Origin: a virus
Lineage: Duplodnaviria > Heunggongvirae > Uroviricota > Caudoviricetes
Length of the DNA stretch: 29,156 nt
Reading direction: 5' to 3' (one strand)
IMG/VR virus record: IMGVR_UViG_2734482789_000006
The translations under genes and the position numbers were made by a program. The notes under the pieces are model-generated. The model made no database searches, was not told where the DNA came from, and was given only the letters and a program-made list of their open reading frames with translations. Positions within the stretch are counted from its first letter, which is position 1. Each line of letters begins with the position of its first letter. This document shows positions 1-21,835 of this stretch, piece by piece.

Positions 1-669
1 CTATATGCGTTTGATTACCACTAGATTCGACATAATCTTTGGCTCTTTCATCACTGGTACAGCCAGTTGAGGGGTAAATGATACATTGAACGGTAAGGAG
101 GGGCACCCGATGCCTTGTTCACGACTTCTTCTAATCATCCAATTCTCAGCTAGCCAACAAAAATTCCCATAAAATTTTATGTTAACACTCCGTCGCGCAG
201 TCAAGTATGGTTCAAATTCCTTAGCCAAAAAAATCACTGTAGAACCAAATACTTTGTACAGGAACATCTCATCATACAAACCATTTCTAATAGCATTTGC
301 ACATCGTTCCCATTCATTAAAAACTGTCATTAATGCTCGAGCTTCTTTCGTTTGCCTTACCTCATCACGCCCCCACATTTCAAGGGGAATTATTTTCCTA
401 AGCTTCAAAATGTTTAGCATCGTTTGCCAAGCATCTTCAACTTTATCGCTCCGCTTATATGATGATTCAAAATCAAGTGAGTTTTTTTCACGAGAGGTTT
501 GTCTCTGCTTTCCTATGCTTATAATCGCTATGGCCGCAGCAATGAGAGCAGCGATGATTGTACTATAAAATGTAGGATTGTCTTTCCAAAGGCGTGCCAA
601 CGTGCACAAGATTGTATGTAAGAAATCTTGATTCATTTCACTTAATCCATAAACAAAAGAGGTGGGCAT
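1..669 (-). CDS. Accessory membrane protein of unknown function (222 aa, one predicted transmembrane helix); candidate prophage moron, possibly superinfection exclusion or defence
   Basis: Complete ORF whose TAG stop is window bases 1-3. The protein has a hydrophobic stretch (TFYSTIIAALIAAAIAIISIG) followed by a charged soluble domain. The region is visibly AT-rich compared with the phage body. A GAGGTGGG Shine-Dalgarno-like sequence lies about 7 nt upstream of the ATG at 667-669. I recognise no family; function is inferred from position and composition only. Confidence 0.55.
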   Translation of the reverse strand: MPTSFVYGLSEMNQDFLHTILCTLARLWKDNPTFYSTIIAALIAAAIAIISIGKQRQTSREKNSLDFESSYKRSDKVEDAWQTMLNILKLRKIIPLEMWGRDEVRQTKEARALMTVFNEWERCANAIRNGLYDEMFLYKVFGSTVIFLAKEFEPYLTARRSVNIKFYGNFCWLAENWMIRRSREQGIGCPSLPFNVSFTPQLAVPVMKEPKIMSNLVVIKRI

Positions 670-681
670 ACGCCCACCTCT
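658..681 (-). promoter_or_regulatory. Perfect 10-bp stem / 4-nt loop hairpin enclosing the SD and start codon of the 1..669 gene
   Basis: Plus strand AGAGGTGGGC-ATAC-GCCCACCTCT at 658-681. On the minus-strand RNA the 5' arm is the SD-like AGAGGUGGG, the AUG sits at the loop/stem junction, and the 3' arm (CCCACCUCU) is codons 2-4. A TTTGTTTAT run follows on the minus strand, so it could also act as a terminator for upstream transcripts. Confidence 0.45.
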
Positions 682-1325
682 GAAAATCTATAAAATGAGT
701 AACTATTTACTTGGAAGTAAAGACACCCCAATCCTCTTCGCGATAGATTTTTTTCATAGTTCATACCTCTCTGGTTGTCTCATTTTTTGGCTAAAAACCT
801 TTGGACATACTTTATACACATTCGACAAAAGAACTACAAGTAAGTTCATCCGATTTCAGTTTCTTCCATCATAATCATTCAACTATAAAGCAATGTTATC
901 AACTTCTTATGTGTTACCTACATAATAGCAAAACAATAGCAAAAAGTAGAATCGTCACATGTAAAACCATGTAAACATAATATTTTCAAATGGATACATA
1001 ACACACACTGTGCTCCCTCCTCCTAAGCAGACTGAAAAAAAATGAAATTTCTTTCAATCATTTCAGTTTCTCTCCTCCGCCAAGCCGCCAGTAATGGTGT
1101 GGTCTAGCACTCAGTTTTGTAGAAAAATAAAACTGAAAAATTTTTATGATCCAAAAACCGCAGGCGGGTGCGGTGTAGCGCCGTTTTTGTCTGCGAAAGA
1201 TTTATTTTGTCGGTGCATCGCTGCGCCAGCGCAGCGCCATGCGCACGATCTTTTATATGTGTTGCATTGGGTTAATTTGTTGTTTTAAGTGCTGAGAACG
1301 CGTTCTGCTGCGTCTGAGGATGGGT

Positions 1326-20158: not shown

Positions 20159-21216
20159 GTAAAAAGAAACGCTTTGTTAAGCGCGACCAGCGCGGCGACA
20201 AATCAAAAAAGATGAGCATTATCACATTCGGCAAACCTGAACCAGTTCTGACTACCGGCACAGATTACCGTGATATCTGGTACGACAATGCCGCCGATCA
20301 CTTCACCCAGCCGATTGACCGGCTGGCACTCGCGCAACTGATTAATCTTAACGGTCAGCACGGCGGCATCATTCACGCCCGTAAAAACATGATTGTTTCA
20401 GACTACCAGGGTGGCGGGCTTATTCACGACCAGCTGGAAGCGGCAGCGTTTGACTATATAACCTTTGGGGATATTGCGATTGCCAAAATTCGTAACGGCT
20501 GGGGTGACGTGATCGCACTTGAACCCTTGCCCGGTCTGTATATTCGCCGCCGCAAAGTCAGAGATAACGCCCTGGATAAGCCCGGTGACTACGTGGTGTT
20601 ACAGGAAGGAGAACCGCAGGTATGGCCAGAAGAAGATATTATCTTCATCAAAATGTATGACCCGCAACAGCATATCTACGGACTACCGGACTACATCGGC
20701 GGTGTGCATTCCGCGTTACTTAACAGTGAAGCGGTCATTTTCCGACGCCGCTATTACCACAACGGTGCGCACACTGGCGGTATTCTTTATACTCGCGATC
20801 CCAGCATGACGGACGAAATGGAGGAAGAAATTGAACAGCAGCTGCGGGACAGCAAAGGGATCGGTAACTTCTCCACCATCCTTGTAAACATTCCCGGTGG
20901 AGACGGCGACGCCATCAAATTCATTGAAATGGGGGATATTTCCGCGAAGGATGAATTTGCCAACATCAAAAACATCAGCGCCCAGGACATTCTGAACGCG
21001 CACCGTTTCCCTGCCGGCCTCGCCGGTATTGTCCCGCAGAACACTGCCGGACTGGGGGATGTTGAAAAGGCTGAACGCATTTACAAGAAAAGCGAAATTG
21101 CCCCCATCCAGCGCCGTTTCATGCTTGCCGTTAACAACGATCCCGAAATACCGGAAAGGCTACACCTTAACTTTGATTTAAGTTACACAGAATCAACGGA
21201 TAAGGGTGCGGCATGA
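20155..21216 (+). CDS. Portal protein (P2 gpQ-like)
   Basis: 353 aa following the terminase with overlapping stop/start; size and order match P2 gpQ. Confidence 0.8.
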   Translation: MSKKKRFVKRDQRGDKSKKMSIITFGKPEPVLTTGTDYRDIWYDNAADHFTQPIDRLALAQLINLNGQHGGIIHARKNMIVSDYQGGGLIHDQLEAAAFDYITFGDIAIAKIRNGWGDVIALEPLPGLYIRRRKVRDNALDKPGDYVVLQEGEPQVWPEEDIIFIKMYDPQQHIYGLPDYIGGVHSALLNSEAVIFRRRYYHNGAHTGGILYTRDPSMTDEMEEEIEQQLRDSKGIGNFSTILVNIPGGDGDAIKFIEMGDISAKDEFANIKNISAQDILNAHRFPAGLAGIVPQNTAGLGDVEKAERIYKKSEIAPIQRRFMLAVNNDPEIPERLHLNFDLSYTESTDKGAA

Positions 21217-21266
21217 GGCGAAACAGGCTAAAATCCAGGCATCATTTAACAGCTGGAGCATGGAAT

Positions 21267-21536
21267 ATGCGAGTTCTGAAAATCGAATGCCCGGAATGCG
21301 GCTCAAAGGCTGTTATTCGTAAAACGAACAGAAAGCACCGGCAGATTGCGGATATTTACTGCGCCTGTTCAGATGTTGAGTGTGGCCATACGTTTGTTAT
21401 GAATCTGACGTTCTCCCACACTCTCAGCCCCAGCGCTAAAACGGGTGATGCGATGGTGCAAAAAATACTGAATGCACTTTCACCCGATCAGCGCCAGATG
21501 GCATTAGACCTACTGAAAGCGACTCCCGCCGCCTGA
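21267..21536 (+). CDS. ogr: Ogr/Delta-family zinc-finger late transcription activator
   Basis: MRVLKIECPECGSKA...YCACSDVECGHTF gives the C-x2-C ... C-x-C-x4-C pattern of the P2 Ogr / 186 B family. ATG at 21267 with GGAG upstream; the listed ORF extends in frame back to 21213. Confidence 0.75.
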   Translation: MRVLKIECPECGSKAVIRKTNRKHRQIADIYCACSDVECGHTFVMNLTFSHTLSPSAKTGDAMVQKILNALSPDQRQMALDLLKATPAA

Positions 21537-21716
21537 AACGCCCCCACTCTGGGGGCGTTGCCCTTCCTTTTTAACCATTTCGCGAACCTCTCCCGCAAGC
21601 TCTCCAATCCAGGCCAAAGCGATTGTTTTTTCTCTCTGGTTACTTTCGTAAACATGGGCAATTTTTGCCAATAACTCAATGCGTTCCAGCTGTGCCGACG
21701 CCTCCAAAAGATCCAT
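21510..21716 (-). CDS. Small ORF (68 aa) downstream of a LexA box; candidate SOS-inducible antirepressor (186 Tum-like role)
   Basis: ATG at 21714-21716, preceded on the minus strand by a LexA-like box that overlaps a TTCACA-17-TACTGT promoter-like element. The 3' end reads through the terminator hairpin and overlaps the ogr-like gene, so the true extent is uncertain. Confidence 0.4.
   Translation of the reverse strand: MDLLEASAQLERIELLAKIAHVYESNQREKTIALAWIGELAGEVREMVKKEGQRPQSGGVSGGGSRFQ
21539..21572. terminator. Stem-loop with T-rich tail after the late-activator gene, possibly bidirectional
   Basis: CGCCCCC-ACTCT-GGGGGCG at 21539-21557, followed by TTGCCCTTCCTTTTT on the plus strand and a short T run on the minus strand. 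Confidence 0.4.
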
Positions 21717-21738
21717 TTAGCCCCCACAAGCAATAAAT

Positions 21739-21758
21739 AACTGGATATACATACAGTA
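21739..21758. promoter_or_regulatory. LexA (SOS) box
   Basis: AACTGGATATACATACAGTA: CTG-N10-CAG with an AT-rich centre, 17/20 matches to the E. coli consensus TACTGTATATATATACAGTA. Confidence 0.6.
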
Positions 21759-21835
21759 TACCTTAAAGCACTAATTGTGAAATTTAATTTCCTGCCATCT
21801 ACTGACAAATGAATGCCTTTCACATACTTACACCA

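Follow-up and report, generated by a model that had tools for sequence, protein, structure and literature searches.

In leader-peptide attenuators, among them trpL, hisL, pheL and pyrL as well as the antibiotic-sensing leaders of the erm and ABCF type, a short translated open reading frame (ORF) is followed within tens of nucleotides (nt) by an intrinsic terminator, and the gene behind it is expressed by read-through. In the type III toxin-antitoxin system ToxIN, a Rho-independent terminator located between the toxI repeats and toxN sets the ratio of antitoxin to toxin. The late leader of phage lambda (PR'-tR', giving the 6S RNA) is under Q antitermination, and in Stx phages stx sits between Q and the lysis genes. 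Phage morons, a term of Hendrix and colleagues, are autonomous promoter-gene-terminator inserts. A leader peptide, ToiL, reportedly described by Baniulyte and Wade in 2019, belongs to the topAI-yjhQ toxin operon of an E. coli prophage. The present analysis concerns a hairpin in a stretch of 29,156 nt (hereafter the window; IMG/VR record IMGVR_UViG_2734482789_000006, Caudoviricetes) that lies immediately upstream of a gene encoding a DUF4760 protein, and compares this locus with the systems above.

We put at about three in four the probability that the hairpin is a Rho-independent terminator inside a mobile cassette formed by a promoter, a micro-ORF, the terminator itself and the DUF4760 gene (Table 1). 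A P2-like prophage carries the cassette as cargo at its end. Its minus-strand transcript is predicted to start near 804 and to carry a strong Shine-Dalgarno (SD) sequence and a 16-codon ORF that would be well translated; the hairpin and its U-run would end most transcripts at about 650, leaving an abundant short RNA of about 155 nt. Only polymerases that pass the terminator would reach the DUF4760 gene, and its translation from an ATG at 636-634, almost devoid of an SD, would be poor. The terminator would act as a built-in attenuator which holds the membrane protein far below the micro-peptide, at a fixed low ratio.

Table 1. Features of the DUF4760 cassette, with positions counted from the first letter of the window
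Feature	Position	Strand	Remarks
-35-like hexamer TTGTAG	834..839	minus	17 nt upstream of the -10 hexamer; part of the putative cassette promoter
-10 hexamer TATAAA, in block GTGTATAAAG	811..816	minus	Invariant in the close clade (8/8)
SD of the micro-ORF, GAGAGG	766..771	minus	8 nt before the ATG at 757-755
Micro-ORF, 16 codons and TAA, MKKIYREEDWGVFTSK	707..757	minus	Conserved upstream of all DUF4760 genes examined
Terminator hairpin (predicted)	658..681	minus	10-bp stem, GUAU loop
Loop ATG	667..669	minus	Start of the 222-residue product in public annotation; not conserved
U-rich tract UUUGUUUAUG	648..657	minus	Directly 3' of the stem
DUF4760 gene	1..636	minus	211 residues from the ATG at 636-634; stop at 3-1

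A preliminary description of this region had reported a perfect stem of 10 base pairs (bp) with a 4-nt loop, and the sequence agrees with it exactly. On the plus strand, AGAGGTGGGC (658-667) and GCCCACCTCT (672-681) form a perfect inverted repeat around ATAC (668-671). The minus-strand RNA reads AGAGGUGGGC-GUAU-GCCCACCUCU, followed by UUUGUUUAUG (657-648), which is the T-rich run that had been noticed behind the structure. Seven of the ten pairs are GC pairs. The folding that had been proposed as a check gave a free energy of -19.6 kcal/mol for the isolated hairpin, which was retained in the minimum free energy (MFE) and centroid folds of a 181-nt context. Perfect stems of at least 10 bp with loops of 3-8 nt occur twice in the window, compared with a mean of 0.225 in 200 dinucleotide shuffles, and in a terminator consensus scan the hairpin was the strongest terminator-like site within positions 1-1500, on the minus strand. 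This strand alone has the T-rich run behind the hairpin; the plus strand continues with GAAAATCT, and a role as a plus-strand terminator was rejected because no T-run is present on that side. The stem-loop is GC-rich, within the range of about 5-14 bp, and has a short loop; on the transcribed strand, a U-rich tract borders the stem directly on its 3' side; a co-oriented micro-ORF with an SD and promoter-like elements lies upstream; and the structure is kept in homologues while its sequence drifts. The hairpin has every feature of an intrinsic terminator that can be examined in a sequence and, taken on its own, is an ordinary one. The second perfect 10-bp hairpin of the window (21537-21559, AACGCCCCCACTCTGGGGGCGTT, 3-nt loop) begins right after the stop codon of an Ogr/Delta-like ORF (21213-21536, plus strand), inside a listed ORF of the minus strand (21488-21823), and is probably a terminator.

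Relatives of the cassette were drawn from IMG/VR, GTDB genomes, metagenomes and assemblies, and comprised 37 distinct DUF4760 loci; 35 loci entered the comparison of stems; the close clade consists of eight sequences. The order of elements is identical in all 37 loci: an SD, the micro-ORF, the hairpin with its U-run, and the DUF4760 start with a weak SD. The micro-ORF stop is separated from the hairpin by 11-37 nt (median 24) and the hairpin from the DUF4760 start by 10-44 nt (median 21). This layout persists down to 24-25% identity of the DUF4760 proteins and was found in Enterobacteriaceae, Vibrio, Halomonadaceae, Colwellia and Pseudoalteromonas, among others, in P2-like, lambdoid, ParM-plasmid-like and relaxase-linked contexts. 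When the most distant member (P0039) served as query, the homologue search retrieved no sequence other than P0039.

The 35 loci have 23 distinct stem sequences (for example AGAGGTGGGC, AGAATGGGGGCT, AAGATGGGAGCC, AAAAAGAGGAGC, AAGATGGAGACC, AAGAGGGGCT, AAAAAGAAGAGC and AAGAGCACTC), which pair in every case with free energies of -10.6 to -20.5 kcal/mol (median -17.6), and a U-run follows the hairpin in every locus. RNAalifold analysis of 13 sequences of another clade returned this helix alone, with compensatory double changes at 5 of its 12 pairs. Within the close clade, 97.5% of cells are paired and the changes amount to G-U wobbles or a single exchange of C-G for A-U; sliding the partner columns, as a control, cuts pairing to 40-68%. 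Conserved pairing with free sequence is, as judged from these alignments, the signature of a selected RNA structure. Such a signature fits a terminator and not a trap for an SD and a start codon, because a trap must keep both the SD and the AUG.

The micro-ORF ends 25 nt before the hairpin and looks translated, judging from its SD and from its pattern of variation. In the window, the duplex with the anti-SD is -7.6 kcal/mol at the micro-ORF versus -3.1 at the DUF4760 start; the respective means over the 37 loci are -7.1 and -2.2 kcal/mol. The SD of the micro-ORF is the stronger of the two in 36 of the 37 loci and is strong in all but one, the weakest being that of L078 (-3.9 kcal/mol). In the core IYREEDWGVF, seven codons vary within the close clade and every change is synonymous, which indicates selection on the peptide or on codon identity and not on the RNA alone. 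The back-translated motif occurs once in the window (0.01 expected by chance). A scan of the whole collection for the YREEDWG coding pattern gave 13 sites, 11 of which are upstream of DUF4760 or DUF4760-like genes and two within long unrelated ORFs.

Across the loci, the micro-ORF has 11-21 codons and a core of E-E-[D/N/E/L]-W, with F instead of W in one very distant member; examples are MRNRFNEENWDV, MTKFVMIRNEENWGF, MKSIYREEDWGLS and, in Vibrio cholerae, MKTVYREEDWF. The peptide is still recognizable in Pectobacterium (MIKQFKSYQEEDWGLF), where the DUF4760 protein is 25% identical, and in a locus (MSYGINRKSVREEDFALI) where this identity is 24%. In Halomonadaceae the motif is duplicated in tandem (MSYMIAFDEDWGVSDEDWGVS; double motifs FDEDWGVSDEDWGVS and LDEDWGVYDEDWGVY; L009 3849-3914, L010 496-561 and L054). 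The conserved residues lie near the C-terminus and the N-terminal half varies freely; the stop codon is TAA, TAG or TGA, at a distance of 0-6 residues from the W.

The product of the downstream gene matches Pfam PF15956 with 89.1 bits (cut-off 25; E = 3.8e-25; model positions 2-141 of 141). The protein combines a transmembrane helix at its N-terminus with a domain that is helical throughout (AlphaFold2 model, predicted local distance difference test score 83.6). The gene's ATG at 636-634 comes 21 nt behind the stem, and its SD is weak. A second in-frame ATG is found in the hairpin itself, as had been described: the A and U of the AUG at 669-667 are in the loop, its G is the first base of the 3' arm, and codons 2-4 (CCC ACC UCU) make up the remainder of that arm. 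The listed ORF of the minus strand (1-669) includes the extension from this loop ATG, and public records contain the 222-residue product in 58 blocks and the 211-residue product in none.

The preliminary description had proposed that the hairpin hides the ribosome-binding site (RBS) and start codon of this 222-residue protein, a claim that the comparison does not bear out. Over all clades, an ATG is present in the loop of 5 of the 35 hairpins. In the close clade it occurs in the window, L015 and L016 only; loops there read GTAT, TTAA, TTAT, CTAA, GAAA or CTTAGC, the position of the ATG is AAG in L014, L017, L018 and L043, and L013 has a loop 2 nt longer as well as an in-frame TGA after the hairpin and before the conserved ATG. 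Homologous proteins align from MNQD or MNHD, which corresponds to the ATG at 636-634; conservation begins only there, the annotated start of close homologues is mostly MNHD or MNQD, and the Pfam model begins well downstream of it. The 11 extra residues, MPTSFVYGLSE, are the 3' arm, U-run and spacer read as codons. The stem-loop is found not to enclose the SD and codon of a real, conserved start. On this evidence the true DUF4760 start would be the ATG at 636-634, and the loop ATG is judged not to be a real start. The 222-residue gene model of public records is probably a systematic mis-annotation, arising from an ATG that chances to sit in the loop; gene callers presumably choose it because the purine-rich 5' arm resembles an SD.

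As an alternative, the preliminary description had offered an intrinsic terminator that insulates the gene from upstream read-through, with the true start at 634-636. The terminator and the start are supported and the insulation is not: the tail operon of the phage, upstream, has terminator-like sites of its own at 1350-1334 and 1174-1157, and for this reason the hairpin does not serve to stop its read-through. What the hairpin would stop is the cassette's own short transcript, which encodes the conserved micro-ORF.

Upstream of the micro-ORF, the block GTGTATAAAG (containing the -10 hexamer) and the hexamer TTGTAG/TTGTGG are likely to form the cassette promoter. The latter is conserved in seven of the eight close-clade sequences, L019 having no match at those columns. 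In the window it has three of six consensus matches, which is why the promoter scan did not list it. Two loci that are farther removed, L020 and L022, also have the -10 element, in the form CAGTGTATAAAGG. The scan of positions 1-1500 found no promoter-like site in the 21 nt between the stem and the DUF4760 ATG; given the shortness of this gap and the lack of such a site in it, DUF4760 would be transcribed only by read-through. Two repeats were observed farther upstream. A perfect 12-nt direct repeat, ATTTCAGTTTCT, is present at 853-864 and 1060-1071, 207 nt apart, upstream of the putative promoter. An 11-nt unit, AATAGCAAAAC, occurs in 1.9 tandem copies at 924-944, and its minus strand holds TGCTATTAT (930-922), an extended -10-like element that is conserved in relatives as TGCTATAAT, TGCTATGAT or TGCTATACT; the AATAGCAAAAC/TGCTATTAT region may serve as an operator or as an additional promoter.

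A P2-like prophage makes up the remainder of the window, with genes for terminase, portal, P2 capsid, GpR, baseplate J, tail fibre, Ogr/Delta and GPA, and the upstream neighbour of the cassette is a tail gene of this phage. In the source genomes the prophage end abuts mntR-ybiR-ldtB-ybiT. Positions 1-1030 are AT-rich (GC content 0.29-0.40 versus 0.52-0.58 in the phage) and absent from 5,426 complete E. coli genomes; positions 1031-1400 are shared by those genomes. At the same site by mntR, other E. coli carry a gene with a reverse-transcriptase domain and a serine O-acetyltransferase gene, or the acetyltransferase gene alone (L006 1715-3809, L007 3036-3809). In the source of the window, a 208-residue hexapeptide-repeat protein is encoded just past position 1, convergent with DUF4760. 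The AT-rich composition, the absence from homologous prophages and the alternative genes at the site mark the DUF4760 region as a cargo cassette in a variable hotspot.

In P2-like prophages of Vibrio cholerae (L075) and Aliivibrio fischeri (L078) the cassette lies between the portal gene and ogr, a different insertion place from which it follows that the cassette moves independently of the insertion site. In relatives of the lambdoid type (L025 2920-6175, L033 2856-4585, L036 3072-4582) it is located between the antiterminator Q gene and the holin/lysozyme genes, as assigned with Pfam. No Q gene is among the genes called in the P2-like phage of the window, and the leader is also found beside ParM or relaxase genes; the terminator therefore belongs to the cassette and not to the host element. 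From these comparisons, the cassette moves as a unit among P2-like, lambdoid and plasmid-like elements of many gamma-proteobacteria. It resembles morons in being AT-rich cargo with varied insertion places and its own promoter-like site, absent from otherwise homologous prophages. It differs from them in that its terminator is located upstream of the main gene, after a micro-ORF, and not only at the end. The micro-ORF/DUF4760 module has no description in PADLOC, NCBIfam, Rfam or the literature searched; DUF4760 itself had no match in defence databases, and the literature searched names it once, incidentally. The conserved architecture of micro-ORF, terminator and DUF4760 gene is apparently undescribed so far.

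Several points weigh against a plain intra-operon terminator. In most clades, purines dominate the 5' arm of the hairpin (mean fraction 0.82 over the 35 loci), less so in Vibrio and Pectobacterium, while other terminator-like hairpins of the same loci have a purine fraction of about 0.5 and often C-rich 5' arms; a passive attenuator leaves this unexplained. A purely passive attenuator also leaves the strong conservation of the E-E-x-W/F peptide unexplained. The U-run UUUGUUUAUG is interrupted, and termination efficiency could as a result be modest. Termination, its efficiency and the promoter are predictions made from the DNA, and that harmfulness is the reason for keeping DUF4760 low is a guess.

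A reading that is compatible with the terminator, and adds to it a function for the peptide, is that of a module with two components: the micro-peptide would work in trans as inhibitor, antitoxin or partner of DUF4760, and the terminator would guarantee an excess of peptide, as in toxI/toxN. We regard this as plausible at less than even odds. It would account for a peptide motif conserved with synonymous variation, for the association of the YREEDWG pattern with DUF4760 or DUF4760-like genes, and for a strong upstream SD followed by a weak downstream one; in addition, the peptide variants follow the DUF4760 clades (EENWDV, EENWGF, REEDWGLS, REEDWF). However, the toxicity of DUF4760 and its binding by the peptide are suppositions, a peptide of 11-16 residues is small for a stable antitoxin, and no such system is present in PADLOC or NCBIfam. 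With ToxIN the cassette shares phage-related mobility and, as proposed here, an abundant small upstream product, an intrinsic terminator and a downstream gene reached by read-through. Unlike in ToxIN, the upstream element is a peptide ORF; tandem repeats of the ToxI kind are absent, the 11-nt unit at 924-944 being the only repeat of this sort, and DUF4760 is a helical membrane-anchored protein without similarity to the ToxN/AbiQ endoribonucleases. Lacking both an RNA repeat antitoxin and a ToxN-type toxin, the cassette is not of the ToxIN type.

Regulated attenuation, in which the behaviour of the ribosome on the E-E-x-W/F codons (arrest or slow termination, under stress or infection) alters passage through the terminator and DUF4760 is induced conditionally, is in our view unlikely. 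A short ORF with a strong SD at a constrained distance before a terminator in 37 of 37 loci is what it would lead one to expect, as is the evident selection on the peptide; conserved residues near the C-terminus, behind a variable N-terminal half, are seen in known arrest peptides, and the motif is tandemly duplicated in Halomonadaceae. On the other hand, no alternative partner for the arms of the terminator was found in the RNA. Duplexes of the post-stop spacer with the 5' arm reach -2 to -7 kcal/mol, equal to shuffles, versus -13 to -20 for the terminator, and the classical 1:2/2:3/3:4 attenuator was rejected on these values; by inspection, no leader segment complementary to the 5' arm is present upstream in the window, and the RNAalifold consensus holds the terminator helix alone. 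By geometry, a ribosome at the stop codon would not be expected to reach the stem, and both the identity of the stop codon and its distance from the W vary. A hairpin termed P1, between the E-(D/N)-W-G codons and the stop or post-stop region, is seen in several single-sequence MFE folds, with one apparent covariation (L024 versus L025); it is clade-specific, no more stable than shuffles (z-scores -2.1 to +1.0) and absent from the RNAalifold consensus, and was not taken to be a conserved element. A 1:4 pairing, between motif region and 3' arm, is modestly better than shuffles in some clades only and was not accepted.

The cassette resembles trp-type attenuators in having a short, apparently translated ORF upstream of a terminator that precedes a gene. 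It differs from them in having no detectable antiterminator helix and a single Trp codon without codon runs, for which reasons it is not of the trp type. Compared with leader-peptide attenuators in general, its ORF ends 11-37 nt before the stem and its leader shows amino-acid conservation between distant taxa, an uncommon trait among leaders that sense amino acids. With ToiL it would share a prophage gene held off by premature termination in a leader with a small translated ORF; the ToiL system is Rho-dependent, involves structure-dependent occlusion of the RBS and senses ribosome-targeting antibiotics, whereas the terminator of the cassette is intrinsic and no switch was found in it. Nothing relevant emerged from a literature search that joined leader peptides, intrinsic terminators, prophages and toxins. 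Since its motif is placed close to the C-terminus and preserved at the amino-acid level, the nascent peptide could conceivably act in cis. In its most specific form, which we consider rather improbable, a ribosome slowed or arrested on E-E-x-W/F during phage infection or stress would let the polymerase pass the terminator without an RNA antiterminator and switch on a prophage membrane effector with a helical domain like the EP domain of plant EDS1/PAD4. If true, a novel kind of leader-peptide switch would govern a phage-borne effector family that is itself new.

It is improbable that the hairpin is in general a tR'-like terminator overridden by a phage antiterminator, with DUF4760 silent in the lysogen and expressed with the late genes. 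The position in the lambdoid relatives speaks for it: the cassette fills the interval from Q to the lysis genes, as stx does, and in L025 the stretch from Q to DUF4760 holds no promoter-like or terminator-like site besides those of the cassette. In these relatives the hairpin may double as a tR'-like terminator overridden by Q-modified polymerase. However, the phage of the window is P2-like in its Ogr/Delta, GPA and P2-type capsid and tail genes and has no Q among the genes called, and the same leader occurs in ParM-type and relaxase-linked contexts. Unlike the 6S RNA, for which no such feature is described, the leader of the cassette carries a conserved micro-ORF.

About as improbable is a hairpin that only ends an independent small gene or small RNA (sRNA), DUF4760 having a promoter of its own. 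Terminators usually mark the ends of transcription units, and a short RNA that finishes in a hairpin and a U-tail looks like an sRNA. An Rfam search with the leader of the window and of 17 related loci gave no match above the gathering score; the hairpin and U-run lie within a sub-threshold match to the Salmonella sRNA STnc390 at 649-698 on the minus strand (19.5 bits versus a gathering score of 50). The consensus of STnc390, AAAGGUUGGUG...CACCAACCUUUUUUGUU, is of the same type, and a literature search for STnc390 found nothing. Against this, the interval from stem to DUF4760 start is short in all loci and no promoter-like site was found in it, any promoter farther upstream must still pass the terminator, and the two genes are strictly linked in every locus. 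Least credible of all is the sequestration model of the preliminary description, in which the hairpin would hide the SD (5' arm) and AUG of a 222-residue isoform until opened or processed: although GAGGUGGG is well spaced from an in-frame AUG in this allele, the 5' arm is SD-like in many clades and gene callers pick this start, the loop AUG is replaced by AAG or followed by an in-frame TGA in close relatives, the extra residues are the 3' arm and what follows it read as codons, homologues align from the downstream ATG, and a 10-bp stem is too short to be processed by RNase III.

The conserved architecture gives a concrete handle on the DUF4760 family. The module could be either a new pair of peptide and effector whose stoichiometry is set by a terminator, or a leader-peptide switch that operates with no antiterminator. 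The locus also illustrates that annotation passes over short conserved ORFs ahead of phage cargo genes.

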